DNA of 64,000 nucleotides from Treponemataceae bacterium (GTDB taxonomy: Bacteria > Spirochaetota > Spirochaetia > Treponematales > Rectinemataceae): positions 832,001-896,000 of the forward strand of contig CAXXVZ010000003.1 in NCBI GenBank assembly GCA_963678065.2, in the 5' to 3' direction. Under the pieces are notes generated by a model that saw nothing but the letters and a program-made list of their open reading frames with translations, ran no database searches and was not told the DNA's origin. The translations under genes and the position numbers were made by a program. Positions 12,081-36,280 of this stretch are shown piece by piece. Numbering within the stretch: position 1 is the first letter of the stretch; every line of letters begins with the position of its first letter.

Positions 12081-12083
12081 TCT

Positions 12084-15098: not shown

Positions 15099-15165
15099 AG
15101 GGGCTCCCGGATTATATGATATTTGTATTATTTCAGCATCCCAAGTTATCAAGGGATAGCATACT

Positions 15166-17384: not shown

Positions 17385-17480
17385 ACCGCACGTTGGCGAA
17401 ATAACCAAGAAGCAAATGGAACTCTACAAATCACTCGGAGTAGAGACCCCGACCAAGGTATAATTGAATGGGAACTCAGG
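17385..17480 (+). mobile_element. IS1634-like right-end remnant
   Basis: Encodes VGEITKKQMELYKSLGV..*, similar to the C-terminus of the 22673 transposase, then GGGAACTCAGG resembling that element's terminal repeat. Left border uncertain. Confidence 0.65.
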
Positions 17481-17865
17481 ATACAACAGCCCGGTACCAT
17501 TTCACGCCGCCTTAATGCCGGAGGCCGTCCACCCAGTACACAGGTTTCCCGATGGACTCTTTTCACAGTGCACACGCTAATCACTGCTTTTGACCTCGTC
17601 AAACTCACTTTCGACACTTCTTCGGACGGTTCACTTTCGTTCGTCTCCTGATACCACACCTGACCCCGTCATGCAGGGCCTTTTCCAGATACGTTCACCA
17701 CCGGGACTCTTTATCCAAGCAGCTTCTGGCGGTTTGAGACCGGCTCCTGTAAGCAGATCCCAAGGCTCCCGTTTCCTTGCGAAAATGGTTCCTCATCTGT
17801 CGCATAGCTCCTATGACACCTCCTGAATCTCCATTCAAAGGTGCCCATCAGATCTCGTGGCACAC
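17481..17865 (-). ncRNA. group II intron 5' fragment (domain I), IIB-like
   Basis: Begins GTGTG; contains GAAAGTGAACC..GTGTCGAAA and GGCGGCGTGA segments recognisable as domain I; stem-loop with EBS1 candidate AGCGTGT complementary to the upstream exon at 6/7; no RT ORF remains. Confidence 0.7.
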
Positions 17866-17879
17866 AGCGGGTGTTAGGC
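17866..17879 (-). other. attC left end (R'' plus spacer) interrupted by the intron
   Basis: GCCTAAC-ACCCGCT directly precedes the intron 5' end. Confidence 0.6.
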
Positions 17880-18425: not shown

Positions 18426-18970
18426 ACTTCCTCCATATAAGAGAAAAGGATCGAAGTTTGCTTCATAAAAACCTATTTGCCCGACTGTGCGTCAGATTCA
18501 TTTTTCCTTTTTTTCTTTAAAAATCAAGTTTTCTTTCTATTGCTCATTTGTTGCAGAAGAAATGTAGTTGTGGCAAAGACTCTTGCTTTTCGATACTTAC
18601 AGCATAGCCTTCCTAGTACGCGAGGTTTTTCAAACCGCTTTTGTTGGTATCCGATTTCTTTTGTAGCCAATTTCTGCATAATTTTCATGTCCATAAAGCA
18701 AATGACCGATTTCATGCAAGAACATGAAGGTAATAGCTATTGTAAATATATTATTTGCAAAACCTATGAACAATTCCGATTCACTAGTAGGATTTCCAAC
18801 AAAGTCCGGAGATGGAAGTCCGTTTGGCCAATCTGAAAATCCATTTAAAGCTATTTGCATACAATAATTTTTCATCATATAAATATGATGATTCATTCCG
18901 TCGGTATCTGGTAAAAACTCTGCATCGGGATTAACGAGCAATAGTTCATTTGTTTTTTCTTGAAAAGCGA

Positions 18971-19517
18971 ATCAACTACCCCGCAGCAAGCTGCGGGGTA
19001 TGAAGAAGCTCTATTCAAACAACGCTAGCTGTTTGCTCTGATATATTGATTCATACTCTACGGGATTCCTTCCTTGATTCTTCACATATTCCGTTATTGT
19101 TTCTTCATTGCCATACTTCCCTACTGTGCCTACATAGTACCCTTTCGTCCACAATTCTCCACCCCATAATATTCTTTTTACTTCTGGCCTTCGTGCAAAT
19201 AGCTCTCTCGCGGTTATACTTTTTATTGTTTGCACTATTTGTTTTGGACTACTTGTTGGTACTGATTGTACTAGAAAATGTACATGATCTTTTTCTGTTC
19301 CTATCTCCAAAAAATGTATTTCATATCTGTTTTCAATTTCTAAACAAATTTTCTTTATTTCATCTTCAACATCATTCGTTATTACTACTCTTCTATACTT
19401 TGCAGGACATACTATGTGATACATCAACACTGACACATTATGGCTCTTATGGATAAACTCACTCATACTCTATTTTACTACGACGCAGCAAGCTGCGGGG
19501 AATTATACCCGTAGAGA
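18971..19517 (-). mobile_element. IS200-type element, copy 1 (547 bp)
   Basis: Subterminal CGCAGC-TT-GCTGCG hairpins, ends TCTCTACG...TTGAT, no target duplication, inserted 3' of TTCAA. Confidence 0.92.
19011..19466 (-). CDS. tnpA: IS200/IS605 Y1 transposase
   Basis: YHIVCPAKYRR, DHVH (HUH), LWTKGYYV, YVKNQ. Confidence 0.95.
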   Translation of the reverse strand: MSEFIHKSHNVSVLMYHIVCPAKYRRVVITNDVEDEIKKICLEIENRYEIHFLEIGTEKDHVHFLVQSVPTSSPKQIVQTIKSITARELFARRPEVKRILWGGELWTKGYYVGTVGKYGNEETITEYVKNQGRNPVEYESIYQSKQLALFE

Positions 19518-19770
19518 TTGAAAAATAACAAAACACCACAAATAGTTTAAAAACTTTCTGACACACAAATTTGTTTCGTTTCATAAACAAACTTAGGTCC
19601 ATAAAACTTTTTTAAATCTGGATCTACATATATTCTTCGATTAATTTTGCCTGTTAAACTTGAATGTAATGCAATCACATCCGAGTTTATACTTTCAAAT
19701 TTTGAAAGAATGTTCACTTTTAATGCCATTACTGGCGTCATCTTTTTCCCTTTTTTCGCGCGAAGCGTCC

Positions 19771-19880
19771 ACCCAACATTAGCATTCTATCCTGCGGAAT
19801 CGCGCAACACACGATTCTCGATGCACTACAGGAGGGTGGCACACCGAGAATTCGATTCTGCAGGATAGAACGTGTTGCAC
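19771..19880 (-). other. non-canonical attC-like hairpin of the recombinase/HUH cassette (copy 1)
   Basis: GTGCAACA-CGTTCTATCCTGCAGAATCG ... CGATTCCGCAGGATAGAATG-CTAA-TGTTGGGT. Confidence 0.75.
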
Positions 19881-20172
19881 TGAACCGTCGTCCCCTATGG
19901 GTACTGTATCAAGTCTTCACATCAAATTGAAGAACAATCCGGGGTTTCTCGGTACTACAAGGCGGGAAATGAGAGGAGACGCGCGTAACGGGACGATTTT
20001 TTTTATTAACGGGCATGTACACGGCAGTACGATTTTTATCCGTAAGCGTGATCATGGGCAATGCCTTATTCAGAGCAGTTTTTACCTGCCGGGAATTGTG
20101 AGGGGATGAAGGGAATACAGGCACAATGGGCGGATGTTCGGTGAAATTCGGACTCAGGAGTCACACCCTCGT

Positions 20173-21381
20173 TCAGGCAAACACCGCCCTGTTCGGTTCC
20201 GGTCCATGGATTTCCCGCAGGAACGCAAGCCGCGATGTGAGCCAATGCGGCCCCGATGACGACACCCCGATCGGATGGTGAATGCTCAGAGGCAGTCCGC
20301 ATCGCGGGCAGCGGGAAACGGCGCACGGTTCGACGCGGGGAGCCTCCATCGCGCTCCCGTGTGCCGGGAATTCGTCGGTTTCAGGCCGGTTCGGGAGTGA
20401 ATCGGACGAGGATGCGATGAGCGCACGCACGCGGACAAGGGAAGCGGTCCGGTCCCGGTTCCCCATGAAGCCGAAATAGCGGATCTTCCGCAGTCCTTTG
20501 GGCAGGATGTGCAGGGTGAACTTTCGGATGAACTCGTCACAGGACAGGCTCATCACTCTTCTCGCATGCCCCGCGGCGCGGTCGATCCACGAAAAACTCA
20601 CTCTCTCCTGAGTGGCACAGACGATGCGGGGTTCGCTGATGCCGACGCGATGCGTGTAGCGGCCCAAGTATTTGACCACCTGGCCGGGACCACCGAAGGG
20701 TGGCTTGGCATAGACGACGAAGTCCTTGCGAGCGGCAGCGCACACCGCATCGCGGAGCACCGATTCGTCGCCGCACAGGTCATGTCTGCCGATGGACTGC
20801 TCAAGACGGCTCAGGAGTTTGCCGCGAAACACCGCTGACAGGCGCTTGACCGAAACGAGGTAGGTGGGGTTCCCCGCTATCCAGCGCGAGAAGTCGGACG
20901 AAATACCTCCTGTGGGTACGATACAATGGATGTGCGGGTGGAAAGCGAGCTTCTGGTTCCAGGTGTGGAGGATGGACATGCCGCCCACGCGGGCACCGAG
21001 GTTGGCGGGATTGGCGCAGACATCCTTAAGGGTTTCGTGGACCGAGAGGAAGAGCGCCCGGTAGAATGCGTGGCGGTTGGAAAGGGCAAGGTAGTGCAGT
21101 TCGTGGGGGACCGTGAAGACCACATGGAAGTACCCGCAGGGTAAGAGTTCGCCAAGGCGCGCGCGCACCCAGCGCGCACACGCGGCACCTTGGCAGAGCG
21201 GGCAATGCCGGTCACGACAGGAATTGTAGTGAACCTCGCGGTGCCCGCACTCGCACGAAAGAACATTCCCTCCGAGTCGCTCCGTCTTGCAGTCGGCTAT
21301 GTGAGAGAGGACGCTCCGTTCCTGACCGGTGAGCCAGGAGAGCGCCATCCCCCGCCGCGCTATGTCGCCTAGTGCGCTCAT
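20173..21381 (-). CDS. IS91-family (Y2, HUH) transposase
   Basis: Zn domain SCRDRHCPLC, HVVFTVP, HPHIH, YLGRY, KIRYFG; ATG overlaps the recombinase stop. Confidence 0.93.
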   Translation of the reverse strand: MSALGDIARRGMALSWLTGQERSVLSHIADCKTERLGGNVLSCECGHREVHYNSCRDRHCPLCQGAACARWVRARLGELLPCGYFHVVFTVPHELHYLALSNRHAFYRALFLSVHETLKDVCANPANLGARVGGMSILHTWNQKLAFHPHIHCIVPTGGISSDFSRWIAGNPTYLVSVKRLSAVFRGKLLSRLEQSIGRHDLCGDESVLRDAVCAAARKDFVVYAKPPFGGPGQVVKYLGRYTHRVGISEPRIVCATQERVSFSWIDRAAGHARRVMSLSCDEFIRKFTLHILPKGLRKIRYFGFMGNRDRTASLVRVRALIASSSDSLPNRPETDEFPAHGSAMEAPRVEPCAVSRCPRCGLPLSIHHPIGVSSSGPHWLTSRLAFLREIHGPEPNRAVFA

Positions 21382-22265
21382 CGGGGCTTTCCCGCGGAGT
21401 GCACACCTGGTGCCGGGAGATGGTCGAGGGGGTTGCGGACACTCTGGAGATGATGCGTCGCCACGTGCAGGTACACTTCCGTCGTCTGGATGGAGCTGTG
21501 ACCGAGCATGGACTGGATGGTGCGCAGGTCGGTGTGGTCTTCGAGTAGGTGGGTTGCGAAGCAATGCCGGAGCGTGTGCGGCGAGATATGCTTCTCGATT
21601 CCGGCTTTTCGTGCGATAGCGGGGACCATCCTCTGGATACCACTCGGATCCAGCGGGCCATCGTTCTTGGCACCCGGGAAGAGCCAGGTTTTCGGCTTGA
21701 CGAGGCACGAGCGATAATAGGCTCGCAATATCCCGAGGAGGTGGGAACTGAGCTGGACATGCCGATCCTTGCCACCTTTGCCTTGCCGGACGTGCACGAG
21801 CATCATCGTACTGTCGATGTCGGGTATCTGGAGCTTGACCAATTCGCCAAGGCGCAGGCCGGTGGAGTACAGCGTGGCGATGATCGCATAGTACTTGGGA
21901 TTCAGCCGCGCGGTTTCCAGAAGAGCTGCTACCTCTTCTTTGGACAGTATGGACGGAAATCGCCTTCGTCTGCGCTGGAACGGAATGTGTTTGACCGTGA
22001 AATCGCAGGTGCGCACGTTCTTGAAATAGAACCTGAGGGCGCAGACCATCTGGTTGAAGAGAGACCAAGATACTTTTTCTTCATTGACGAGATGATACTG
22101 CCACTCCTGGATGTCGGCCGATGTGACACAGGCGATCGGCTTGTCAAGCTGTTCAAGGTACCGCTTGAGGACGGAGACATAGGTGCTGATGGTCTTGGTG
22201 GCGTAGTTGCGGATGACCAGCGCTTTGCGCATGGCTTCGAGTTCGAGTGCGAGTTCGTAGTGCAT
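21378..22265 (-). CDS. tyrosine recombinase (IntI-related, no obvious I2 insertion)
   Basis: SAM-like N-terminus, TGLR, GKGGKDR, HTLRH, LGH..IQTTEVY, NPLD end; GGAGG RBS. Confidence 0.93.
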   Translation of the reverse strand: MHYELALELEAMRKALVIRNYATKTISTYVSVLKRYLEQLDKPIACVTSADIQEWQYHLVNEEKVSWSLFNQMVCALRFYFKNVRTCDFTVKHIPFQRRRRRFPSILSKEEVAALLETARLNPKYYAIIATLYSTGLRLGELVKLQIPDIDSTMMLVHVRQGKGGKDRHVQLSSHLLGILRAYYRSCLVKPKTWLFPGAKNDGPLDPSGIQRMVPAIARKAGIEKHISPHTLRHCFATHLLEDHTDLRTIQSMLGHSSIQTTEVYLHVATHHLQSVRNPLDHLPAPGVHSAGKPR

Positions 22266-22376
22266 TGGATACCTCCGGCGTGATGATGCCAGAAGTATCC
22301 GTGGTCTATGAATGTGCCCGAACCTCGCAAAAGGTAGGAATGAAAGCGAATCCTCCACCGCTGGTACAGCGGTTTA

Positions 22377-22487
22377 GTGCAACATTGATTTAACCTGCAA
22401 AGGCGAATTGGCGCGCGTTGTGCTAAGGAGCGAAGCGATTGCACAACGCGTGACAAACGCTTTTGTCAGGTTGAAATCTTTGTTAGG
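22377..22487 (-). other. attC site
   Basis: GCCTAAC-AAGATTTCAACCTGAC ... GCAGGTTAAATCAAT-GTTGCAC. R'' is the exact complement of GTTAGGC at 32316-32322. Confidence 0.92.
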
Positions 22488-22530
22488 CGACTTTGATTGA
22501 TATAAAACACTTGATTTATAATATTCATAA

Positions 22531-24282
22531 CCTGAAATCCCGGGAATGATTTAACCTACAAGACTTTTTACGCACAGAACAGGAATAATTCCTACTATTA
22601 TCACGACATACATAGTGACAGGTCCTTCAGGTGTAGGCATAATGTGTTTAACCTACACAAAGAGGGACTGCCATGTCATGCATAGTCCACCAGAAAGTCG
22701 GTCAGCACACCTACCTGTATGAGTCAGTCTCCTACCGTGATGAACGGGGTAAGCCACGGGCGCATCGGGTTCCCATCGGAAAACTAGACCCGGACACGGG
22801 GCAGGAAATCTACAAGCAGGAATACGTGTCGCGTATGGTAGCAGCGGGAACTCCGATCGCTGTCTATTCGCCACCACCGACTTTCACAGAACAGGATGTG
22901 CAGAAATCCTCAGTCCTGCATACCGGCATGGCCCTTTTGTTGAAGCAGTGTGCACAACAAACCGGACTTTCCGAAGTTTTGCGCGATGCATTCCCCCAGA
23001 CACACGAACTTTTATTTGCACGTGCCTGCCACATCGTCTGCCGCGGGGAACCGTCCGCATATTGCGAGCAGTGGCTGGAAGACACCGACCTCGCAGTTCC
23101 CGCCCGGCTCAGCTCGCAACGGATTTCGGATCTTGTGTCTTCACTGCCAGCATCCCAGGTTCTGCGGTTTTATCAGGCATGGGTCGCCACGCGCAGTGAA
23201 CAGGAATATCTGGCGCTGGATATCACCAGCATCTCGTCGTATTCACAGCTCATCGACGATGTGGACTGGGGATACAATCGCGATCAGGAAAAACTGCCAC
23301 AAGTGAATATCTGTCTGCTCACCGGGGAAGAGTCACACCTTCCCGTGCGCATGGTTGTCTATGACGGAAGCATCAAGGACGTGAACACCCTGAGAACGAC
23401 GATGGCCGGTCTCACCGACGGTATCGGATCAAAGGTTCGCATCGTCACCGACAAGGGCTTCACCAGCAAACGGAATATCGAAGCCATGCTCGCGTTCGGG
23501 AATGTGGAGTTCATCATGGCCCTCCCGTTCACGCTCACCTTTGCGGAAAACCAGGTGCGCAGCGAGAAAAAGGATATCGCGGATATCCGGAATACCATGA
23601 TGAGCGGCAGCGATGTCTTCTATGGCGTGACCAAGCGGCGTACATGGGGCACAACGGAGCTGTATACCCACATCTGCTATAACGAGGTGAAAGCGACTCG
23701 TGAACGGAACCATCTGTATGGCTATGTCGCGAACCTGCGATCGCAGGCGCTGTGCGACCCGTGGAACGAGAAACTGAAAGCCGAGTTTGCAGAATATCTC
23801 ATCATCAGAAAATCGGAGAAGCGAGAGGATGGAGTCACGGTTACCATCCGCCAGGATGTGGTGGACGAGCATCTGGCTCATGCCGGGTGGATGGTGTGCG
23901 TGAGCAATTCCGTGGATACCGTGCAGGAAGCGATCAGGATCTACCGGGCAAAGGATGTGGTGGAAAAAAGCTTTCTGCGCACCAAGAACAGCCTGGGTAT
24001 CAACCGGCTACGGGTACACTCCCAGCAAGCGATGGATGGAATGATGCTGGTAGCCTTCATCGCATTGATTCTCAACAGTCATATCCATCGGATCATGCTG
24101 GAGAAAAACCTATACCGGAACATGAGCATGACGGATCTGGTGAAAACGATGGAGAAACTCAAGGTCATGGTCATCGGTGATACGCGAATCGATTTCCCTG
24201 CTACCAAGAAGCAAAAAGAGATTGCAGAGGCTTTCGGTCTCACGAGCCTTTCTGTAGGTTAAATAATAGGCGGGATTTTAGG
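22531..24282 (+). mobile_element. IS1634-family element
   Basis: Terminal IRs CCTGAAATCCCG / CGGGATTTTAGG, 6-bp TSD TCATAA, subterminal TTTAACCTACA repeats. Confidence 0.92.
22673..24262 (+). CDS. IS1634-family DDE transposase
   Basis: LDITSISSYS, GYNRD, TDKGF, YRAKDVVEKSF. Confidence 0.92.
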   Translation: MSCIVHQKVGQHTYLYESVSYRDERGKPRAHRVPIGKLDPDTGQEIYKQEYVSRMVAAGTPIAVYSPPPTFTEQDVQKSSVLHTGMALLLKQCAQQTGLSEVLRDAFPQTHELLFARACHIVCRGEPSAYCEQWLEDTDLAVPARLSSQRISDLVSSLPASQVLRFYQAWVATRSEQEYLALDITSISSYSQLIDDVDWGYNRDQEKLPQVNICLLTGEESHLPVRMVVYDGSIKDVNTLRTTMAGLTDGIGSKVRIVTDKGFTSKRNIEAMLAFGNVEFIMALPFTLTFAENQVRSEKKDIADIRNTMMSGSDVFYGVTKRRTWGTTELYTHICYNEVKATRERNHLYGYVANLRSQALCDPWNEKLKAEFAEYLIIRKSEKREDGVTVTIRQDVVDEHLAHAGWMVCVSNSVDTVQEAIRIYRAKDVVEKSFLRTKNSLGINRLRVHSQQAMDGMMLVAFIALILNSHIHRIMLEKNLYRNMSMTDLVKTMEKLKVMVIGDTRIDFPATKKQKEIAEAFGLTSLSVG

Positions 24283-24632
24283 TCATAACTATTATTCTCC
24301 CCTACTTTCTTACAAGATTCCTGATATGAAGTGACCCGTCAAGTGAGAATCGTTTTCGCCTTTTCTTTTTCACCTCTCTCTTTCCGGCAGGGTCGCCCGA
24401 GCAAAGGCCGAAGAAGCTGTAGCCGACGGTTGATCACTCTGATATTCGTGGGTTCGCCCCGAAGGGTTGCCAACATGGTCGTGAATTCGTCGGGAGCTGC
24501 CTCGGACTAGGTGCGCGAGTCCGGCCGATGAAGGCTTGTCGCATAGGAACCGCGAGGATTCTCCTTTCCGCGTGCCCTTCAGCCTTTGCCCGCACGACCC
24601 TGCCATCATGTACGTCCCTCTCCTTTCCGCGT

Positions 24633-25072
24633 TTAAGCAGCCGTTTTCCGCTCGACCGCGACGCCAATCGCCCAAATGAAACCAAGCATTTCCCGCGCCA
24701 CCGCCGTGACAACCTGCTGCTTGTTCTTGCCCCTCGCCAAGAGTCTCGCGTAGCGACTATGAAGTCGGTGCCGTGCCTTCGTCGCGATCTCCTGTATTTC
24801 CGGTGCCAGGTGCTCTTGTCGAGCTTTCATGACCCTGCTCAGTAGCGGTCTGTACCGTTGTGACCACGCAGCCTCGACGATGATCCTCCTGAGGTGCGCG
24901 TTCCCGGTCTTTGTGATTCTCCCTCGCTGGGTCCGTTCGCCGCTGGAGTTTTCGCTCGCGACCGCTCCCGAATGCCCCATGAGCTGCCGCAGGATCGAAA
25001 ACCGGGTCAGCTGTCCTACCTCCGCTACAATCGTTACCGCCGATACCTTGGCGATGCCACGAAGCGCCTGCA
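24633..25072 (-). pseudogene. IS110 transposase C-terminal part
   Basis: SENSSG, ITKTGNAHLRR, AVARE; joins the N-terminal part in frame (EALQA-LRGIAK). Confidence 0.9.
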
Positions 25073-25133
25073 TGGAAATGGCAAGTAGTTTTCCCCACCA
25101 TATGGCAACTAGGAATCCCCACCCGGTAGAGGG

Positions 25134-25874
25134 TTATTCCTCCTTCTTTGCAGAGATGCGATATGACTCCCCTGACAGGGAGAAAATCTTTGCGTGATGC
25201 ATGAGACGATCCAACAGGGCTGCGGTCATAACCTCGTCGCCCATGAGTTCTGACCAAGAGTTCAGGTCCTTGTTGCTCGTCACGACGATAGAGGCACGTT
25301 CATAGAGATCCGAGACGAAGGTGAAAAAGAGATTGGCTTCCTTGCGCTCGATAGGAGTGTAGCCAATCTCATCAATGATCATGAGGTTGGCCTTCGCGAG
25401 CCGGCTTAGCCTGAACTGAGCGCTGCGTGCGGCGTCAGAGCGCACGAGGAGCTTCACCAGTGAGGTCATGCGCTCGTAACAAACCGAATAGCCTTTGCGT
25501 ACGGCCACATGGCCAAGAGCGATTGCGAGATGGGTCTTTCCGAGTCCAGGAGGCCCGAAGAGCAGAAGGTTCTCGTGACGGTCTATCCAAGAGCACTCGG
25601 TGAGCTCAGAGAGGTCTCGTTTTCCAATTCCTGCTACTCGGCCGAGTTTGAAATCCTCGAGGCGCTTTACGACGGGAAAATGGGCCATGGCGAGGCCTCG
25701 TTTGAGGCGCCTGTCGCCGCGATCCTGTAGTTCGACGTCCACGAGGGTCTCGAGGAAGGCAAGGCATGTCAGTCCCCCGCTTTCAGCTTGTTTAAGAAGC
25801 TCAGGAAGCCGTGACGACGCGCCACGAAGCCGCAGGGACTCCAGTTTACGAGCGGATTCTGCGAGGGCGCTCAT
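25134..25874 (-). CDS. istB: IS21 helper ATPase
   Basis: GPPGLGKTHLA, IIDEIGY, ALLDRLMHH, GESYR. Confidence 0.95.
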   Translation of the reverse strand: MSALAESARKLESLRLRGASSRLPELLKQAESGGLTCLAFLETLVDVELQDRGDRRLKRGLAMAHFPVVKRLEDFKLGRVAGIGKRDLSELTECSWIDRHENLLLFGPPGLGKTHLAIALGHVAVRKGYSVCYERMTSLVKLLVRSDAARSAQFRLSRLAKANLMIIDEIGYTPIERKEANLFFTFVSDLYERASIVVTSNKDLNSWSELMGDEVMTAALLDRLMHHAKIFSLSGESYRISAKKEE

Positions 25875-27418
25875 TCTTCGTGCCTCTGCGTATCGACGAG
25901 CGCGTCGAGGAATCGCTGATACTCGCTGACCGAGCGTGTGGCAACTAGTGGAAGGTCTCTGGTTTGATGAAGGCCGCGGTACGGCGAAGGCGCCACTGCG
26001 GGCACTGGCGTCGTGCTGTTGACCGCGTCGATGAGATCCTGGGCGCTTGCAAGTCCTCTATCCAGGCAGAACTTCAATGCAAGCACGAGTTTCTCTCTGT
26101 CGATGTTGCGCTTGAGAAGCTTCCGAAGTCGGCCAGCGTGCTCCCGGAAGTAGCGTCGATACTCGGTATAGATACCATCGACGAAGCTCCCCCACTCGGG
26201 AAGATCATCTACTGCGGCGACAAGATCCGCGCGGAGCGTTTCCTGGGATCCTTCGCGATCGCGATAGTGAGCCTTGTCCAGCACCGTTCCGCCGGGTGTT
26301 GCCGCTTCGCGATGCGCCGCGATCTGGATACCCGTCTTCGTATCGAATACCAGGATGAGTCCGTCCTTGCGCTCGATAGTGACCTCGTTGAGCCGGTACG
26401 AGCTCGGCACCGAGTACCTGGTCGCGGCGATCGATATAAGGCTTTTCTGATCCACGTTACGGCTCTCTCGGCAGCCCGATGCGGTGTCCGCGCGGAAAAT
26501 AGACGCTCGGAGCGCCCGCAAGACGGGTTTCTCGTGCGCTTCGAAGTCCGCGAGCGGCATGAGACGCGTGGCTTGGCTCAGTTTTGCGTTCACTCGTAAG
26601 AGCCATTTGCGCATGCCTGCCTGGAGTTCGTCGAAGGTCGCGAAGCAGCGGCTCGAGAAATAGCTCGTTTTGACGTATTTGACCGCATTCTCGACCTTTC
26701 CTTTCGATTCCGGATCGGCCGCACGGCAGACACGGAGCCGCAGTCCCTGTTCTGCGACGAACTCAGCAAAGGCTTTTGTCGTCGTGAGGTCGCCAAGGTT
26801 TTCCGTCACAATCATTGTCCGGTCCTGATCCATGACGAGTTCTTCGGTGATACCGCCAAAAAACTCGAAGGCGTCCAGGAGATGGCCGATCACATCCTCG
26901 CTGGTAAAGGGCCTGGATTGGGCCGCTACGTAGCGGTAACGGCTTCGTGAGAGTACTACGACAACAAACCAAGCCTTTCCGATGTTCGTCGTCTCTACGC
27001 CGAAATCAATCTGAGCCTGCTTGCCGTAGGCCAGAGGCTCCACAGGACGATATTCCCGACACAGGCCCACCTTAATCGCACCGGATGCCTTGAGATACGT
27101 CAGGTAGTTCCGCAACGTACGGTCCGAGCCTGGAAGCTCTCCGTATTTCTCGCTTAAGTAGTCGTGGACGGACGATGAGTAGACCATCCTGCCTTCGTGG
27201 TTCTTTTTAAAAATCTCGAGGATTTCGTCCTTGTAGACCGAAAAAGCCTTACCGCGTTCTGCCATTCGCTCGAGATACCGTAAGAATTGGTCATTGTCCA
27301 TGCGCAGGTACTTTCTCACGGTCTTGCGGTCCTTGCCAAGTTTTACCGCTAGTGCGCTGACTGTGAGTCCTTGCCTGTGCCCTGTTCGTACGATGTTGTA
27401 GTCCTTCATGGTAATCAT
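25871..27418 (-). CDS. istA: IS21 transposase
   Basis: HTH DRKTVRKYL, AQIDFG, ESKGKVE. Confidence 0.95.
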   Translation of the reverse strand: MITMKDYNIVRTGHRQGLTVSALAVKLGKDRKTVRKYLRMDNDQFLRYLERMAERGKAFSVYKDEILEIFKKNHEGRMVYSSSVHDYLSEKYGELPGSDRTLRNYLTYLKASGAIKVGLCREYRPVEPLAYGKQAQIDFGVETTNIGKAWFVVVVLSRSRYRYVAAQSRPFTSEDVIGHLLDAFEFFGGITEELVMDQDRTMIVTENLGDLTTTKAFAEFVAEQGLRLRVCRAADPESKGKVENAVKYVKTSYFSSRCFATFDELQAGMRKWLLRVNAKLSQATRLMPLADFEAHEKPVLRALRASIFRADTASGCRESRNVDQKSLISIAATRYSVPSSYRLNEVTIERKDGLILVFDTKTGIQIAAHREAATPGGTVLDKAHYRDREGSQETLRADLVAAVDDLPEWGSFVDGIYTEYRRYFREHAGRLRKLLKRNIDREKLVLALKFCLDRGLASAQDLIDAVNSTTPVPAVAPSPYRGLHQTRDLPLVATRSVSEYQRFLDALVDTQRHEE

Positions 27419-27514
27419 TTCTTGTGCCGCATGCTCGCAAGCATAGCGGCCAAGGCCCCTGTGGGTGGGGAATTCTATTTGCCAACTGCTGGGGAATTCA
27501 GTTTACCATTTCCA

Positions 27515-28212
27515 GCCTGCAATGCCTCGATGACTTCCTTCATGACTGCTGGCGCCGTTGCCACCGCCTCGTCGATCTGCCCTTCGAGCCGCTTGATCCG
27601 AAGCGAACAATGCTCGACCTCGTTCACGTAATCTTCGAGCGTGCATTGTTGGGCCTGTTGGTCGAATTTCACCTGTGCCTTGACCCACGCCATATACTGC
27701 TGCGTCCACGCTCGTAGTTTCTCGGGTGGCCTCGTCCCATGCCTCAGGAGAAACTTGCCCAGCCGGTGTCGTGCCCGGAGTTCGTCGCGCTTCGCCGCCT
27801 CCCGCGCTCGAACGAGATCCCGCAATGCTTCGTGCGCGGCGTCCGGAACCCACACGGCCGTCAGCTCGCCGGCTCGATAACTCCTCGCAAGCCGCTCCGC
27901 ATCCCGACGATCCGTCTTGACCCGATCACCGGCTTTCATCGGCACCAAGGTCGGGGCGATTACCGCGCACTCGTTTCCGAGCTTCTCAAGTTGCCAGTAG
28001 AGTACGTATCCTGTCGGTCCCGCTTCATAACATGCCTTCCAGGTCCCTCCGGCGTTCAGTTTCTTCACGAGCCGTTGCACTGACTCAGGACGATTCGGCA
28101 CGGTCCCCAGAAACCTGACTTCACCCTCCGGCTCTGCCACCGCCACCGCGATCGTGTCCGCATGGACATCGAACCCTACACATCGCACCGCCTTTCCGCT
28201 ATACTTCTTCAT
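27515..28212 (-). pseudogene. IS110 transposase N-terminal part
   Basis: VGFDVH, YEAGPTG, VKTDRRDA (DEDD RuvC-like). Confidence 0.9.
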
Positions 28213-28289
28213 GACCGCCCCCTTCGTATGTAGCTCTACGCTACCTTCTCCCGATCGTAGCGCAACCTACGCGTCTACGCTCGGGGCGG

Positions 28290-29732
28290 TCACTTCATTA
28301 TGACTAAACTATTCCTATACATTTGAAGTTTTCTTTTTAACAATCGATTCTGAATTGTTGTATATATATAAGATATAGTACAAGCAGTTCCAGAAAAAAT
28401 GTCTGCCACTGCAGCGACAGTTCTTAGTGAAAAACCGAGAAATATCATATTTGATTTCAATAAAGGTCCCCAAAAAGTTAAATAAACTGAAGTAAAAAAT
28501 ATCACAATATATACGCATGTGACAATGATCCCCGGCAATTTTTCGTTTCGACTACTAGCTATAGCACCTTCAGTAGCCTCCCAATTAAAACTATCTGCAC
28601 CACGCAACTGTAATAATACTTCCAATTTGGCCATATGAAAACCAAGATCATTCATTCCACTAATTAAAGAAAATAGTACCATGCCTGATAAGGCAGTTAG
28701 AATTGGAAGAAAGGCAATCATCTCAGTTTTATTGCTTATAACAGAATATACGAATAAGCCCGCCATCGCACTAAGTGATCCAACACTTACAGAAGAAAAA
28801 AAACTTTCTATCGCTAATATTTCTGAAAATCTGAGCTTATATGATTCTAAAAGCAGTTGAAAGTTTTCTTGGGCGCTTATTTTCAGGGTTTTTTGAGAAT
28901 CAATCAATTCTATCTGGTTTTTAAGAGTATCACTTCGTTCTTTGATAGTAGTGTCTTGTTTAGTTACGAGTTCAACAACTGGTACACCACCATAAGTTCG
29001 TCCTGATTGGAGCGTGGTGTTTTTAGGGACCAGACTATTAGCTCCTACTACAACATCATCTTCAAGAATTACACCAGGGAGAATGGTTGCATATTGTCCA
29101 ATTGTCACGCGATCCCCTATGTGAATCTGTTTCCGTATAATATTACCTCTCTCTCCAGAATGTCCATTCAACACACAATCACCACCAATTATACAATTCT
29201 CCCCGATATTAAGGATGCCCCAATCGTTTACACGCATGGAAGCAATTATTGTTCCCTTACCAATTTTTGCCCCCATGCCTCGATAGAATAAGCTTAATAG
29301 TGGCGTGCCTCGAATCAGGGGGAGAAATAAATGTTCTGCTAATATGAGGGATGCTTCTGATAAAAAAAAGGAGATATTTCTCCAATCATCTACCTTTCGC
29401 ACTCCTTCCCATTTTGAACCAGGCAAGATTTTATTAATAATTATTAGTAACAGTAATAAAACAAACCCAAATGTGACATATCCACTAATTATTGCTAGTG
29501 CAATTAATAACAAAGCGACTATCTTGGATGGTATGGTTATATTCAGTTCTGAAATATTAGTACCGATATATAATGCAGCTGATATAGCTATTGCGCAAAT
29601 GCAAATACCTAGGACATAAATCAGTGCATAGACTAACAAACGAGCTAGCTTGTAAAGTATTCGGATGACAAAATGATAAACGCTTGTAAATTTTTTAGTC
29701 ATGTAATCAATTATCTTCTTTAAATTCCACAT
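28290..29732 (-). CDS. membrane protein with hexapeptide-repeat acyltransferase domain
   Basis: GAKIGKGT/IGENCIIG/IGDRVTIG repeats, VGANSLV, YGGVP; TMs on both sides. Last codons come from the IS110 end. Confidence 0.8.
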   Translation of the reverse strand: MWNLKKIIDYMTKKFTSVYHFVIRILYKLARLLVYALIYVLGICICAIAISAALYIGTNISELNITIPSKIVALLLIALAIISGYVTFGFVLLLLLIIINKILPGSKWEGVRKVDDWRNISFFLSEASLILAEHLFLPLIRGTPLLSLFYRGMGAKIGKGTIIASMRVNDWGILNIGENCIIGGDCVLNGHSGERGNIIRKQIHIGDRVTIGQYATILPGVILEDDVVVGANSLVPKNTTLQSGRTYGGVPVVELVTKQDTTIKERSDTLKNQIELIDSQKTLKISAQENFQLLLESYKLRFSEILAIESFFSSVSVGSLSAMAGLFVYSVISNKTEMIAFLPILTALSGMVLFSLISGMNDLGFHMAKLEVLLQLRGADSFNWEATEGAIASSRNEKLPGIIVTCVYIVIFFTSVYLTFWGPLLKSNMIFLGFSLRTVAAVADIFSGTACTISYIYTTIQNRLLKRKLQMYRNSLVIMK

Positions 29733-29751
29733 CTTGCATTTCTCCGTTTAA

Positions 29752-30298
29752 TCTCTACGGGTATAATTCCCCGCAGCTTGCTGCGTCGTAGTAAAATAGA
29801 GTATGAGTGAGTTTATCCATAAGAGCCATAATGTGTCAGTGTTGATGTATCACATAGTATGTCCTGCAAAGTATAGAAGAGTAGTAATAACGAATGATGT
29901 TGAAGATGAAATAAAGAAAATTTGTTTAGAAATTGAAAACAGATATGAAATACATTTTTTGGAGATAGGAACAGAAAAAGATCATGTACATTTTCTAGTA
30001 CAATCAGTACCAACAAGTAGTCCAAAACAAATAGTGCAAACAATAAAAAGTATAACCGCGAGAGAGCTATTTGCACGAAGGCCAGAAGTAAAAAGAATAT
30101 TATGGGGTGGAGAATTGTGGACGAAAGGGTACTATGTAGGCACAGTAGGGAAGTATGGCAATGAAGAAACAATAACGGAATATGTGAAGAATCAAGGAAG
30201 GAATCCCGTAGAGTATGAATCAATATATCAGAGCAAACAGCTAGCGTTGTTTGAATAGAGCTTCTTCATACCCCGCAGCTTGCTGCGGGGTAGTTGAT
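29752..30298 (+). mobile_element. IS200-type element, copy 2
   Basis: Same sequence as copy 1; inserted 3' of TTTAA. Confidence 0.92.
29803..30258 (+). CDS. tnpA: IS200 Y1 transposase
   Basis: Protein identical to 19011-19466. Confidence 0.95.
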   Translation: MSEFIHKSHNVSVLMYHIVCPAKYRRVVITNDVEDEIKKICLEIENRYEIHFLEIGTEKDHVHFLVQSVPTSSPKQIVQTIKSITARELFARRPEVKRILWGGELWTKGYYVGTVGKYGNEETITEYVKNQGRNPVEYESIYQSKQLALFE

Positions 30299-30845
30299 TC
30301 TCTACGGGTATAATTCCCCGCAGCTTGCTGCGTCGTAGTAAAATAGAGTATGAGTGAGTTTATCCATAAGAGCCATAATGTGTCAGTGTTGATGTATCAC
30401 ATAGTATGTCCTGCAAAGTATAGAAGAGTAGTAATAACGAATGATGTTGAAGATGAAATAAAGAAAATTTGTTTAGAAATTGAAAACAGATATGAAATAC
30501 ATTTTTTGGAGATAGGAACAGAAAAAGATCATGTACATTTTCTAGTACAATCAGTACCAACAAGTAGTCCAAAACAAATAGTGCAAACAATAAAAAGTAT
30601 AACCGCGAGAGAGCTATTTGCACGAAGGCCAGAAGTAAAAAGAATATTATGGGGTGGAGAATTGTGGACGAAAGGGTACTATGTAGGCACAGTAGGGAAG
30701 TATGGCAATGAAGAAACAATAACGGAATATGTGAAGAATCAAGGAAGGAATCCCGTAGAGTATGAATCAATATATCAGAGCAAACAGCTAGCGTTGTTTG
30801 AATAGAGCTTCTTCATACCCCGCAGCTTGCTGCGGGGTAGTTGAT
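30299..30845 (+). mobile_element. IS200-type element, copy 3 (tandem)
   Basis: Abuts copy 2 with no spacer (TTGAT|TCTCTACG). Confidence 0.9.
30350..30805 (+). CDS. tnpA: IS200 Y1 transposase
   Basis: Identical protein. Confidence 0.95.
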   Translation: MSEFIHKSHNVSVLMYHIVCPAKYRRVVITNDVEDEIKKICLEIENRYEIHFLEIGTEKDHVHFLVQSVPTSSPKQIVQTIKSITARELFARRPEVKRILWGGELWTKGYYVGTVGKYGNEETITEYVKNQGRNPVEYESIYQSKQLALFE

Positions 30846-30897
30846 TTTATCAATCTGGCTATTCCACACTATAACAATCCTTACTTCTCACCTAATG

Positions 30898-32217
30898 CTA
30901 TTCATTCGCTTTTGCTGTTTTTAGGTATTTTGAAGGACTTCGAAAAACATGTTTATCGATAAATACAGCAGACAAAATGAATACATTAATTACAAATAGT
31001 AATGCCATATCGACAGATATAACAATCTTATGCTTAAAATATCTATTTTTATAATCTACAATTGACATTAATAATCCGCAAAATAGTGGCCAACATAGTA
31101 TAGGGAGTAGGAAATATAATATAGTTGTGGATACACCTAATAGCATTGCTACAATTCCTGAAGACCAAAATAAGATAAAAAGAGGTGCAATGTATGGCAA
31201 CGAGAAAAACCTTAAGCAATCTATTCGTAAGAGAATTGGTATTTTCTTAGCAGTGCATGAAACAGAAATATGTCTATCAGCTAAATCCAACCATCCACGA
31301 GACCATCCAAAACGTTGATCAATGAACTCGGTCAATTTCTCTGGAACTAATGATTCAGTAGATATATCTTGGCGTAGCTCTACTTTGTATCCACCCAAAG
31401 CAAGTCTAAATGAAAGATCTATATCATCCAGGAGTAAAGACTCATCTATTTTGAATTGGTGCTTTTCAAATAACGAACGTGAAAAAAAACCTTGTCCTCC
31501 TCCATAAAAACTAAACCCTCCAATTTTTCCGTTTGCTTCAATTTCAAGACGTTCAATGATATTTCGCTCTACTGATTGAGCTCGAACCAAAATATTTTTC
31601 TCATTATTATGTGTTTGAAGCATTCCTTGAATAACCAATTCTTTTTTTGAGTTACCAAATATTCTTGATAGAGTAATGAGAGAATCTTGATCCATTGTGT
31701 GATCTGAATCCAAGAAAGCGACCACGTCGGTATGGGGAGCATTATATAACCCATATGCAATCGCTGCTCCGCGTCCTGCTGGTGGAGTTTTTTTTATTAC
31801 AACCACTATCCTATTGTCGGATTTAGCCTGCTTTTCGATATACTGTAGTGTACCGTCACTAGATGTCGATTCAATAATGTAGCAAAAATAGAGTGATCCA
31901 CAATAGATAAGCGATTGCATTTTCGGAATTGTTTTTTCTAGAATAGGACGTTCGTTTAGACATGGAATTATTAAGCATATGCTTGGCAAATTGCTACAGT
32001 TACTTTCTTGATATGAGGAGTCCAGCTTGGAAAGTGTTACCAGTATGCAATACCGAACTATAATAAGTCCAGAGACTACTATTCCAATATAACATAGAGG
32101 GATAACAAGAAACTGAAAATAAGATAGAACAGCGATCGCAACGATCATTAATCCAGGCCCTGTGATTATTGCAATTGTTCTAACCCTAAGGCGTTTATGA
32201 TTTTCATCTACTTCCAT
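30898..32217 (-). CDS. GT2-family membrane glycosyltransferase
   Basis: IIPCLNE, SSDGT, FLDSD, LDDID, QRFGW (QxxRW-like), flanking TMs. Confidence 0.88.
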   Translation of the reverse strand: MEVDENHKRLRVRTIAIITGPGLMIVAIAVLSYFQFLVIPLCYIGIVVSGLIIVRYCILVTLSKLDSSYQESNCSNLPSICLIIPCLNERPILEKTIPKMQSLIYCGSLYFCYIIESTSSDGTLQYIEKQAKSDNRIVVVIKKTPPAGRGAAIAYGLYNAPHTDVVAFLDSDHTMDQDSLITLSRIFGNSKKELVIQGMLQTHNNEKNILVRAQSVERNIIERLEIEANGKIGGFSFYGGGQGFFSRSLFEKHQFKIDESLLLDDIDLSFRLALGGYKVELRQDISTESLVPEKLTEFIDQRFGWSRGWLDLADRHISVSCTAKKIPILLRIDCLRFFSLPYIAPLFILFWSSGIVAMLLGVSTTILYFLLPILCWPLFCGLLMSIVDYKNRYFKHKIVISVDMALLFVINVFILSAVFIDKHVFRSPSKYLKTAKANE

Positions 32218-32315
32218 ATAAACCTTACCTCTTACATATATTAATTGTGTCTAATTTTTAATCTAATAATACATTGACTTATAGTATTATGGGACTTAAT
32301 AAGCGCGAAGCGTCC

Positions 32316-32425
32316 GCCTAACATTAGCATTCTATCCTGCGGAATCGCGCAACACACGATTCTCGATGCACTACAGGAGGGTGGCACACCGAGAATTCGA
32401 TTCTGCAGGATAGAACGTGTTGCAC
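32316..32425 (-). other. non-canonical attC-like hairpin (copy 2)
   Basis: Same as 19771-19880 but ends in GTTAGGC. Confidence 0.75.
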
Positions 32426-32717
32426 TGAACCGTCGTCCCCTATGGGTACTGTATCAAGTCTTCACATCAAATTGAAGAACAATCCGGGGTTTCTCGGTAC
32501 TACAAGGCGGGAAATGAGAGGAGACGCGCGTAACGGGACGATTTTTTTTATTAACGGGCATGTACACGGCAGTACGATTTTTATCCGTAAGCGTGATCAT
32601 GGGCAATGCCTTATTCAGAGCAGTTTTTACCTGCCGGGAATTGTGAGGGGATGAAGGGAATACAGGCACAATGGGCGGATGTTCGGTGAAATTCGGACTC
32701 AGGAGTCACACCCTCGT

Positions 32718-33926
32718 TCAGGCAAACACCGCCCTGTTCGGTTCCGGTCCATGGATTTCCCGCAGGAACGCAAGCCGCGATGTGAGCCAATGCGGCCCCG
32801 ATGACGACACCCCGATCGGATGGTGAATGCTCAGAGGCAGTCCGCATCGCGGGCAGCGGGAAACGGCGCACGGTTCGACGCGGGGAGCCTCCATCGCGCT
32901 CCCGTGTGCCGGGAATTCGTCGGTTTCAGGCCGGTTCGGGAGTGAATCGGACGAGGATGCGATGAGCGCACGCACGCGGACAAGGGAAGCGGTCCGGTCC
33001 CGGTTCCCCATGAAGCCGAAATAGCGGATCTTCCGCAGTCCTTTGGGCAGGATGTGCAGGGTGAACTTTCGGATGAACTCGTCACAGGACAGGCTCATCA
33101 CTCTTCTCGCATGCCCCGCGGCGCGGTCGATCCACGAAAAACTCACTCTCTCCTGAGTGGCACAGACGATGCGGGGTTCGCTGATGCCGACGCGATGCGT
33201 GTAGCGGCCCAAGTATTTGACCACCTGGCCGGGACCACCGAAGGGTGGCTTGGCATAGACGACGAAGTCCTTGCGAGCGGCAGCGCACACCGCATCGCGG
33301 AGCACCGATTCGTCGCCGCACAGGTCATGTCTGCCGATGGACTGCTCAAGACGGCTCAGGAGTTTGCCGCGAAACACCGCTGACAGGCGCTTGACCGAAA
33401 CGAGGTAGGTGGGGTTCCCCGCTATCCAGCGCGAGAAGTCGGACGAAATACCTCCTGTGGGTACGATACAATGGATGTGCGGGTGGAAAGCGAGCTTCTG
33501 GTTCCAGGTGTGGAGGATGGACATGCCGCCCACGCGGGCACCGAGGTTGGCGGGATTGGCGCAGACATCCTTAAGGGTTTCGTGGACCGAGAGGAAGAGC
33601 GCCCGGTAGAATGCGTGGCGGTTGGAAAGGGCAAGGTAGTGCAGTTCGTGGGGGACCGTGAAGACCACATGGAAGTACCCGCAGGGTAAGAGTTCGCCAA
33701 GGCGCGCGCGCACCCAGCGCGCACACGCGGCACCTTGGCAGAGCGGGCAATGCCGGTCACGACAGGAATTGTAGTGAACCTCGCGGTGCCCGCACTCGCA
33801 CGAAAGAACATTCCCTCCGAGTCGCTCCGTCTTGCAGTCGGCTATGTGAGAGAGGACGCTCCGTTCCTGACCGGTGAGCCAGGAGAGCGCCATCCCCCGC
33901 CGCGCTATGTCGCCTAGTGCGCTCAT
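32718..33926 (-). CDS. IS91-family transposase
   Basis: Identical translation to copy 1. Confidence 0.93.
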   Translation of the reverse strand: MSALGDIARRGMALSWLTGQERSVLSHIADCKTERLGGNVLSCECGHREVHYNSCRDRHCPLCQGAACARWVRARLGELLPCGYFHVVFTVPHELHYLALSNRHAFYRALFLSVHETLKDVCANPANLGARVGGMSILHTWNQKLAFHPHIHCIVPTGGISSDFSRWIAGNPTYLVSVKRLSAVFRGKLLSRLEQSIGRHDLCGDESVLRDAVCAAARKDFVVYAKPPFGGPGQVVKYLGRYTHRVGISEPRIVCATQERVSFSWIDRAAGHARRVMSLSCDEFIRKFTLHILPKGLRKIRYFGFMGNRDRTASLVRVRALIASSSDSLPNRPETDEFPAHGSAMEAPRVEPCAVSRCPRCGLPLSIHHPIGVSSSGPHWLTSRLAFLREIHGPEPNRAVFA

Positions 33927-34810
33927 CGGGGCTTTCCCGCGGAGTGCACACCTGGTGCCGGGAGATGGTCGAGGGGGTTGCGGACACTCTGGAGATGATG
34001 CGTCGCCACGTGCAGGTACACTTCCGTCGTCTGGATGGAGCTGTGACCGAGCATGGACTGGATGGTGCGCAGGTCGGTGTGGTCTTCGAGTAGGTGGGTT
34101 GCGAAGCAATGCCGGAGCGTGTGCGGCGAGATATGCTTCTCGATTCCGGCTTTTCGTGCGATAGCGGGGACCATCCTCTGGATACCACTCGGATCCAGCG
34201 GGCCATCGTTCTTGGCACCCGGGAAGAGCCAGGTTTTCGGCTTGACGAGGCACGAGCGATAATAGGCTCGCAATATCCCGAGGAGGTGGGAACTGAGCTG
34301 GACATGCCGATCCTTGCCACCTTTGCCTTGCCGGACGTGCACGAGCATCATCGTACTGTCGATGTCGGGTATCTGGAGCTTGACCAATTCGCCAAGGCGC
34401 AGGCCGGTGGAGTACAGCGTGGCGATGATCGCATAGTACTTGGGATTCAGCCGCGCGGTTTCCAGAAGAGCTGCTACCTCTTCTTTGGACAGTATGGACG
34501 GAAATCGCCTTCGTCTGCGCTGGAACGGAATGTGTTTGACCGTGAAATCGCAGGTGCGCACGTTCTTGAAATAGAACCTGAGGGCGCAGACCATCTGGTT
34601 GAAGAGAGACCAAGATACTTTTTCTTCATTGACGAGATGATACTGCCACTCCTGGATGTCGGCCGATGTGACACAGGCGATCGGCTTGTCAAGCTGTTCA
34701 AGGTACCGCTTGAGGACGGAGACATAGGTGCTGATGGTCTTGGTGGCGTAGTTGCGGATGACCAGCGCTTTGCGCATGGCTTCGAGTTCGAGTGCGAGTT
34801 CGTAGTGCAT
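33923..34810 (-). CDS. tyrosine recombinase
   Basis: Identical translation to copy 1. Confidence 0.93.
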   Translation of the reverse strand: MHYELALELEAMRKALVIRNYATKTISTYVSVLKRYLEQLDKPIACVTSADIQEWQYHLVNEEKVSWSLFNQMVCALRFYFKNVRTCDFTVKHIPFQRRRRRFPSILSKEEVAALLETARLNPKYYAIIATLYSTGLRLGELVKLQIPDIDSTMMLVHVRQGKGGKDRHVQLSSHLLGILRAYYRSCLVKPKTWLFPGAKNDGPLDPSGIQRMVPAIARKAGIEKHISPHTLRHCFATHLLEDHTDLRTIQSMLGHSSIQTTEVYLHVATHHLQSVRNPLDHLPAPGVHSAGKPR

Positions 34811-34921
34811 TGGATACCTCCGGCGTGATGATGCCAGAAGTATCCGTGGTCTATGAATGTGCCCGAACCTCGCAAAAGGTAGGAATGAAAGCGAATCCTC
34901 CACCGCTGGTACAGCGGTTTA

Positions 34922-34942
34922 GTGCAACAATAATTAGGCTGA
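34922..34942 (-). other. attI-like site
   Basis: AGCCTAATTATTG^TT resembles the attI1 simple site (CCCTAAAACAAAG^TT); no attC hairpin arm upstream; head of the array. Confidence 0.55.
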
Positions 34943-35475
34943 TCCCTGTAAGTTTCGGTACACAGCTTTCCAGTCCCTATAAAATTCCCTGTTACTACTC
35001 ACTGCACTCTCACAACCTTTTTCTCGTCAATACTTTATAGCTCAGGCGTTATTGGTATGCGGTATTTTATGCGAATCCGCATAAGTCCCCTAATCCTCAA
35101 AAGGGATCCAGACACTATAGCTTCTCCTGTAGGACATCGCTAATGAACACTAGAGCTTCACCCAAGCCATACACATGTCTTTCCTAGCAGTAGCCTGATC
35201 ACTGGTCGATCGCTCCCTGACCGCGGCCGAAACACGCTGATCACCGTAAAGACAATCTGTAGGCTAGTATAACTTCTTTTTTCTTGAATGCAACCGAACT
35301 TGGTTATTTCTTTTGTTGGAACCTATTTGCAGTTGTGAAATACCGTTCCCCAGAGCCTGCTTTTCCCATGAAGATTATTTTGCGCAATCGATCACAACCC
35401 TCTGAGTCGGGAAAACAATGCATATTTCAGAGGTAGCCTCTTGTATACTTAATGTTTGTATAGTATGTATCGATT

Positions 35476-36279
35476 ATGGACGATCATGAGGAATCAGCCT
35501 GCGACATCCGCGTCGGGACGTCGGGGTACGACTATCTCGAGTGGCGAGGGGGCTTTTATCCGGAAGAGCTACCGCGAAAGGAATTCCTTCGCTTCTACAG
35601 CGGGATTTTCCGCACGGTGGAACTCAACTACACCTACTATCGGCAACCGAACGCCGAGAGTATGGCCACGTTGGCGAGGCAGACTCCGGCGACTCTGGAC
35701 TTCTCCGTCAAGGCGAACCAGAGCTTGACGCATGAGGTCAACGAAGGCTCGGTCGGCGAGGATATCAAGGCATTCCGGCAGGGCATCGAGCCATTGCACA
35801 AAGCGGGGAGGCTCTGCGCTGTGCTGATGAGTTTTCCCTTTTCGTTTCATTATCGCCCTCCGGAACGGACGTATCTTTCATGGCTACTCGGGGAACTTGA
35901 GGATCTCCCTCTGGTCGTCGAATTCCGCAGCATCGACTGGTATACGGCGCGGGTGATCGATGGGCTCAAAGAGCGACGGGTGGGAATCTGTACGGTGGAT
36001 GAGCCTCTCCTCCCCGGACTGCCGCCCGTGTCCGACCTCGTGACTTCCGACCTCGCCTATATCCGGTTTCACGGACGGAATGTGGAGACCTGGTGGTCGG
36101 GAGATTCCGCCACCCGGTATGACTATCTCTACTCCGAGTCCGAGCTGAAAGGCTGGAAACCGCGGATCGGCGCGATGATGGAACAGGCGAAAAAACTCCG
36201 TGTATTCTTCAACAACCATCGCTCTGGTCAAGCCACGACGAATGCACGCGACCTGCAGAGGCTCCTTACCGAGGTCTGA
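35476..36279 (+). CDS. DUF72 family protein
   Basis: VGTSGYDY, VELNYTYY, YIRFHGRN, RYDYLYS, FFNNH. Confidence 0.92.
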   Translation: MDDHEESACDIRVGTSGYDYLEWRGGFYPEELPRKEFLRFYSGIFRTVELNYTYYRQPNAESMATLARQTPATLDFSVKANQSLTHEVNEGSVGEDIKAFRQGIEPLHKAGRLCAVLMSFPFSFHYRPPERTYLSWLLGELEDLPLVVEFRSIDWYTARVIDGLKERRVGICTVDEPLLPGLPPVSDLVTSDLAYIRFHGRNVETWWSGDSATRYDYLYSESELKGWKPRIGAMMEQAKKLRVFFNNHRSGQATTNARDLQRLLTEV

Positions 36280-36280
36280 G

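Follow-up and report, generated by a model that had tools for sequence, protein, structure and literature searches.

A recombinase-bearing IS91-like element at attI and attC sites in a Treponemataceae genome

The window, a 64,000-nucleotide stretch of a Treponemataceae genome (contig CAXXVZ010000003.1, positions 832,001 to 896,000), carries two copies of a mobile element that encodes a tyrosine recombinase and an IS91-type Y2 HUH transposase. Within the IS91 family, this element probably belongs to the branch that carries a recombinase, and there to a subclade that, judging by its junctions, homes to integron attI and attC sites. We also favor, without pressing the point, a mechanism in which the recombinase encoded by the element inserts a single-stranded circle. 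A first-pass annotation of this DNA had read the unit as a self-mobilizing integron cassette, in which the HUH enzyme supplies a single-stranded copy and an IntI-like recombinase inserts it independently of the host IntI; parts of that reading stand and others do not.

Copies of the element and their boundaries

The element is real, well bounded, intact, and recently active. As first annotated, the two window copies are identical and have G^TT at both unit start and unit end, and the identity spans 2610 bases (19775-22384 versus 32320-34929). A comparison of both copies shows their flanks diverging immediately at the crossover points, so the reported absence of a target duplication, a property that the unit shares with the IS91 family, holds. 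The annotation missed a third copy, on contig C3 (Table 1). It also began the feature at 19771, which is accounted for by a GGACGC-type motif that follows each copy; we considered this motif as part of the element and rejected it, as it is generic to this genome's cassettes. Unitigs from public runs, which may include the source sample, indicate that the duplication is genuine: the right junction of copy 1 is present at single-copy depth (16.4 in X2 and 9.1 in X3), the attI junction of copy 2 is present in X2, and the depth of the element is about three to four times that of the single-copy junction.

An att site precedes all three copies in the genome, attC twice and attI once. The canonical attC named in front of copy 1 is confirmed by both score and fold, and that upstream of copy 3 scores 74.6 bits against a host-attC model built from other sites (the model draws on 15 spirochaete sites only). 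The attI-like site in front of copy 2 likewise proved sound: it matches the attI beside the genome's intI at 31/37 bases, the last 20 being identical, and there are two such sites in 5.27 Mb. Elsewhere in this clade the pattern recurs. Left junctions lie at the G^TT of an att site in 13/13 cases (3 here, 8 and 2 in relatives), 2 of which were assigned by eye, and right junctions continue with TT and a cassette start in 11/11 (the 3 copies here and 8 relatives). The host-attC model matches all eight of the larger relative set, four of which belong to its training set. Across the family, targets vary by subclade and include attC and attI, GATT-type repeats, GAC cores, and CGTTT cores. By these junctions, att targeting appears to be a subclade trait, with most relatives using other targets. 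Backwards insertion at the R'' box, sought with a mirrored scan, was found in 0/172 left flanks and was rejected.

Table 1. Positions of the element copies, their parts, and the associated integron sites (window coordinates unless a contig is named)
Feature	Position	Strand	Remarks
Element copy 1	19777-22382	minus	2606 bp between two G^TT crossover points
Element copy 2	32322-34927	minus	Same sequence as copy 1; occupies the first position behind an attI
Element copy 3	C3:2358872-2361472		98.9% identical; follows attC; same boundaries
Tyrosine recombinase, 295 aa	21378-22265 (copy 2: 33923-34810)	minus	PF00589 + PF13495
IS91-type Y2 HUH transposase, 402 aa	20173-21381 (copy 2: 32718-33926)	minus	PF04986 + PF14319
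Left end: TT, GCAC tetranucleotide, GC hairpin	22358-22382 (copy 2: 34903-34927)	minus	
oriIS-like motif, family consensus TTCAATCCCCATAG	19895-19912 (copy 2: 32440-32457)	minus	Internal
Inverted copy of left end, R''-box role	19875-19887 (copy 2: 32420-32432)	minus	
Terminal hairpin	19777-19870 (copy 2: 32322-32415)	minus	Variable loop, 4-base bulge
Canonical attC of upstream cassette, target of copy 1	22377-22488	minus	68.5 bits (host-attC model built without this site); fold z = -7.2
attI-type site with no intI beside it, targeted by copy 2	34926-34962	minus	
One cassette between copies	22383-32321	minus	Start complements own R'' box
Remnant right end of related element	17288-17362	minus	77-81% identical; still ends at G^TT before cassette

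Enzymes and end architecture

Domain matches bear out the annotated pairing of a tyrosine recombinase with a Y2 HUH enzyme. The catalytic residues of the recombinase (R153, K178, H245, R248, H271, and Y280) are kept in 104, 98, 105, 104, 101, and 99, respectively, of 105 distinct relatives. The protein lacks the IntI-specific insertion in the catalytic domain, as seen in an alignment with two IntI proteins and in a split match to 2A3V, and it scores 205.7 bits against TIGR02249, under the cut-off of 265. It is a close relative of IntI but not an IntI. The transposase combines the HUH motif (HPHIH), two tyrosines (Y238/Y242), and the zinc domain expected of the IS91 family, and it scores 359 bits against NF033538 (cut-off, 125). 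Among its relatives, YxxxY is found in 101/103 and the HUH pattern in 84/103. The transposase start overlaps the recombinase stop, and the recombinase gene lies directly upstream of the Y2 gene in the unit and in 82 of the 85 loci whose upstream sequence is long enough to hold it. Purifying selection acts on both genes, with a ratio of nonsynonymous to synonymous substitution rates (dN/dS) of about 0.12 to 0.17. The family is large, with at least 7974 transposase relatives at E 1e-30 among 8000 scored candidates; viral contigs searched with the recombinase yielded no relative. A recombinase tree placed the element proteins in one clade (0.98) beside IntI (0.54), but with a single outgroup and a number of oddly placed sequences it is not used as support here. 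The tree suggests that att targeting occurs in more than one branch.

The left end of the unit resembles the terIS of IS801 and IS1294, a likeness seen with two canonical elements, with the main junction two bases outside the terIS cut. Its motif is found in 61/69 family loci, and it appears to double as one recombinase arm. The oriIS-like motif, whose likeness to the IS91 oriIS was assessed by eye against two canonical elements, is set back about 130 bases from the right end, whereas in the IS91 family oriIS lies at the extreme right end beside a CTTG/GTTC-type target; an IS91 target tetranucleotide occurs within 0 to 4 bases of it in 4/106. In 61/80 distinct elements, versus 1/80 in a control window, the motif falls within the 70 bases that precede the inverted left-end copy; elements with short flanks or with an inverted copy matching at fewer than 10/12 positions were excluded. 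As previously noted, the unit start complements the unit's own GTGCAAC box, here over 13 to 14 bases. This inverted copy covaries with the left end, the variable positions being paired in 57, 54, and 51 of 62 cases versus 30, 30, and 24 expected, counts in which kin are not independent.

The arms of the terminal hairpin are at 19860-19870 and 19785-19795 and the crossover is at 19777/19776; an inner stem with a variable loop is present in 45/61 elements versus 4/61 in the control. The predicted circle junction folds as a single long stem (z = -6.2) whose inner arm pairs perfectly and which bulges by 4 bases on one side; the inner stem has no extrahelical base, and the spacer is asymmetric. Circularization would close the bulged end hairpin. 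Considered together, the ends share one design across phyla, comprising a terIS-like left end, an internal oriIS-like motif, an inverted copy, and a bulged hairpin, so the cassette-like hairpin is a family trait and not one borrowed from integrons here.

A predicted route of insertion and its alternatives

We propose that a circle forms first, placing the left end beside the terminal hairpin. The Y2 HUH enzyme would make or amplify a bottom-strand single-stranded circle from the internal oriIS-like site. Given the internal position of this site, the enzyme probably serves less to define both ends than to initiate rolling-circle replication, either amplifying a circle or copying from one tandem unit to the next. 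The circle junction would fold into a long bulged hairpin with the layout of attC minus the extrahelical base, and the IntI-related recombinase would exchange a single strand with the target at N^TT, which in this genome is the G^TT of attI or attC. Replication would resolve the product, leaving a copy in cassette orientation with no duplication. In published work, the working intermediate of IS91 is the single-stranded circle of its bottom strand (PMC13181058), and in integrons it is likewise the bottom strand of attC that, once folded, is recombined by IntI with an attI in double-stranded form (PMC11023631). Since the IS91 circle strand is the IntI attC strand when the element lies in cassette orientation, we favor insertion of a folded circle with the element recombinase as the putative strand-joining enzyme.

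Relatives with the same end design multiply without an integron, and the element therefore probably inserts itself. No IntI match at E 1e-45 was found in G885, a single 6.4-Mb contig with 46 transposase matches and 23 intact copies examined, nor in G879 and G880, and the same ends multiply in all three genomes, as expected from the annotated independence of IntI. Rhizobial plasmids also carry multiple copies with the same ends, and alpha-proteobacteria are described as lacking integrons in the accessible part of PMC4889954. An IntI match is present in 7 of the 10 multi-copy genomes examined. Host IntI may help in the present genome but may not be needed by the family.

Multi-copy genomes also reveal the crossover register. 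In G892, the dinucleotide before the left motif is TT at the left of 20/20 copies, and the right dinucleotide is variant in 2/20 (one copy with a broken left end was dropped); in G883/G884, the left is TT in 8/9 and the right is variant in 7/9. Three Mesorhizobium plasmid copies likewise have a constant left and a varying right dinucleotide. Because the left is constant and the right variable, the usual crossover is taken to be N^TT, which is the IntI register and lies two bases from the IS91 terIS cut. Two dimers in G885 are mutually permuted (B-A and A-B) with unique haplotypes. They point to a dimer circle, one step of which would need a second register or branch migration, and they are our one indication of a circular intermediate in a relative.

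Several observations weigh against insertion of a circle by the element's own recombinase. First, an intact IntI is encoded in the genome, outside the window, at C3:97196-98137 (450.6 bits; cut-off, 265). The annotation's statement that no host IntI is seen holds for the window only, and its claim of independence from IntI is not established for these three copies. The layouts attI-element-cassette-element and cassette-element-same cassette are also expected from shuffling by IntI. Second, the expectation that homologues have GTT boundaries beside attC or attI, which the junctions of this clade satisfy throughout, weakens family-wide, where a strict attC scan passes 8/172 distinct left flanks (control, 1/5505). 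This value is a floor, as the scan misses attI and damaged attC; sites in L026, L040, L292, L301, L302, G867, and G822, for example, are att-like by eye. Third, if a single integrated copy were copied out from ori to ter in the plain IS91 manner, the end hairpin would be lost, and the internal ori leaves the first circularization of a single integrated copy unexplained. Fourth, the left dinucleotide is not TT in 5/23 G885 copies, which are on different haplotypes (interior variation, 16/2502 columns). These junctions suggest that a second register, at the IS91 terIS position, or branch migration also occurs, and they leave room for the Y2 enzyme doing the joining; when donors and daughters in G885 were linked by haplotype, an inherited dinucleotide could not be told apart from a second register. 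Finally, neither a circle junction nor an empty site was seen in unitigs of four public runs, in which contigs drop rare forms. The annotated copy-in mechanism is a mixed case: the precise G^TT at att sites, the catalytic residues, the selection, and the relatives without IntI speak for it, but the host has IntI, the end is not a canonical attC, and the ori-like motif is internal.

The most serious alternative, though an unlikely one, is that the Y2 HUH enzyme performs both copy-out and paste-in, guided by base pairing through the inverted copy and hairpin (IS608-type enzymes use such a guide), with the recombinase as an accessory for dimer resolution or target holding. The terIS likeness of the left end and the events in the terIS register would fit, but the main crossover falls two bases away from the terIS site, in the register of IntI. 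Covariation of the internal complement with the core also fits this reading; against it, the junction consists of two inverted arms flanking a spacer. A resolvase would have its use, since dimers arranged head to tail are frequent (about 10 loci by eye). According to the accessible part of PMC13181058, IS91 TnpA alone inserts bottom-strand circles; the oriIS-like motif here, however, has no adjoining IS91 target tetranucleotide, and recombinase sites (attC and attI) are the targets in several subclades.

We give still less credence to the possibility that, in this clade, the unit is a passenger cassette moved by host IntI through its attC-like end, its own enzymes mattering little. Host IntI is intact, IntI is also present in G075 and G131, which hold close relatives of the element, and the exact G^TT register, the cassette orientation, and the first position at attI are what IntI would produce. 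The unit also has, like a cassette, a start complementary to its own R'' box. However, it lacks the canonical attC, with R and L boxes, extrahelical base, and symmetric spacer: its end gives no match to the host-attC model at E 10 with filters off, whereas a divergent attC in the window scores 26.7 bits, its inner stem has no extrahelical base, and its spacer is asymmetric. By its end hairpin and its recombinase, the unit is not a true integron cassette, contrary to the annotation. Moreover, ends and register are shared with copies in genomes where no IntI was found, and purifying selection maintains both genes. A duplication by assembly error or homologous recombination is largely refuted and very improbable: the window copies are 100% identical and assembly contamination is 6.7%, but the flanks part exactly at the crossover points, the third copy differs yet has the same boundaries, and the unitigs give separate junctions with three- to fourfold depth.

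Integron surroundings and relation to known systems

The window array runs from attI through the element, a single cassette riddled with insertion sequences, and a second element to further cassettes. The cassette between the copies includes a glycosyltransferase gene (30898-32217) and a hexapeptide-repeat gene (28290-29732) and is interrupted by two IS200 elements, a split IS110, an IS21, and a DDE element. At the third locus, behind another attI-like site, a 624-bp cassette stands on both sides of the element (99.4% identical). Three attI-type sites head three arrays (G000 C3:98296, the window site, and C3 near 2358247), one of them with intI, which is in tandem orientation with its attI; a promoter scan at attI found nothing. 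There are about 24 attC-like sites in the genome. The 5' part of a group II intron (Rfam group-II-D1D4-2, 17658-17778) lies at 17390-17870 on the minus strand. It entered an attC 7 bases past the R'' box and has the orientation of the cassettes, the opposite being usual for IIC-attC introns. Full copies occur near G000 C3:118109 and C5:775425, and the intI array has three further insertions of this kind. Three near-identical IS200 copies (18966-19522, 29747-30303, and 30294-30846) include two head to tail. On one side of the array (3567-15152, minus strand) are defence-like genes for DUF499, an AAA ATPase, DUF4276, a DUF1156 methylase, and an SNF2 helicase; on the other (35476-40398, plus strand) are DUF72, Y-family polymerase, and DnaE2-like mutasome genes.

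Individual relatives add further observations on targets. In arrays of G131 and G075, the element alternates with single cassettes, many of which encode toxin-antitoxin pairs. At L325:935-1520 (reverse strand of the locus), a 585-bp derivative that has lost internal sequence but keeps both ends follows an attC. Near position 1520 of L322 (reverse strand), the left half of an attC runs into the final 14 bases of an element end, with 6 bases common to both at the join; this chimeric site is probably a deletion footprint. One subclade (L059, L064, L075, L080, L129, L134, and L139) sits at inverted repeats starting with TTATG, which we take to be the ends of RIT recombinase elements, and another inserts at GGGATTCCC-type repeats in rhizobia. 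L249 and L255, both of G885, lie in one and the same repeated target; their junctions are shifted by one base relative to each other, and 1 or 2 target bases are found on both sides.

More tentatively, the recombinase-bearing IS91 branch could be a distinct autonomous class: a rolling-circle replicon with an attC-like circle junction inserted, in a single strand exchange, by the element's own sister of IntI, the free-living counterpart, and possibly the source, of the attC/IntI system. Its subclades would be retargeted by covariation of a short core, the present one being a self-propelled cassette that parasitizes integron arrays. How single-strand attC recombination arose is an open question that so large a family, with its IntI-related recombinase and attC-like circle junction, makes testable with one two-gene element, as it does the role of the recombinase in IS91-like elements. 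The element would also represent a third kind of integron-array parasite, able to take the first, best-expressed position. It may explain some of the 50 cases of non-IntI recombinases beside attC sites given in the accessible part of PMC4889954. If the core can be retargeted, the element could provide a compact tool for site-specific insertion.

IS91-family elements with an upstream tyrosine recombinase are known, among them ISShvi3, ISSod25, ISAzo26, and ISWz1 (ISfinder). Those of the ISShvi3/ISSod25 type have the same two-gene layout as the unit, and the likeness drawn here is one of layout. A Shewanella oneidensis mobile-element paper reportedly linked ISSod25 integrases with attC sites. 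We know of no explanation for the role of the recombinase in IS91-like elements. As far as the accessible texts go, IS91-borne recombinases form an integron-like subgroup without the IntI insertion (bioRxiv 542381), with which the unit's recombinase agrees; ISShvi3 beside attC was noted as a new cassette structure (PMC9229058), and circles bounded by ISWz1 were reported separately (PMC11322121). These texts give no end design, crossover register, internal ori, or mechanism for such elements. The gene pair is thus already known; the end design and mechanism are apparently undescribed. A literature search of accessible text, with subscription journals, ISfinder/TnCentral pages, and supplements outside its scope, did not find the end design, register, or mechanism, and the accessible parts of PMC5001619, PMC5737581, PMC8876359, and PMC7923331 contain nothing on ends, register, or mechanism.

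Like IS91, IS801, and IS1294, the unit has a Y2 HUH enzyme, no target duplication, a terIS-like left end, and an oriIS-like motif. Unlike them, it has this motif internally with no CTTG/GTTC beside it, an N^TT crossover, an additional inverted copy and hairpin at the right end, and a recombinase in place of Orf121. With integron cassettes it shares G^TT boundaries, a start complementary to an R''-like box, cassette orientation, attI/attC targets, and a hairpin that circularization would close; it differs in its noncanonical end, its own enzymes, and a recombinase without the IntI insertion, and its relatives differ in using non-integron targets and moving without IntI. Phages of the CTX type combine a rolling-circle single strand, a hairpin recombination site, and tandem copies with host XerC/D acting at dif, whereas the unit has its own recombinase and no phage genes, and all three copies lie at attC or attI and none at dif. 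Group IIC-attC introns and IS1111-attC elements also home to attC in cassette arrays (PMC3001079 and PMC9229058, accessible parts), but these have unrelated enzymes and interrupt the attC, whereas insertion of the unit takes place at the crossover, so that the attC in front of it stays whole.

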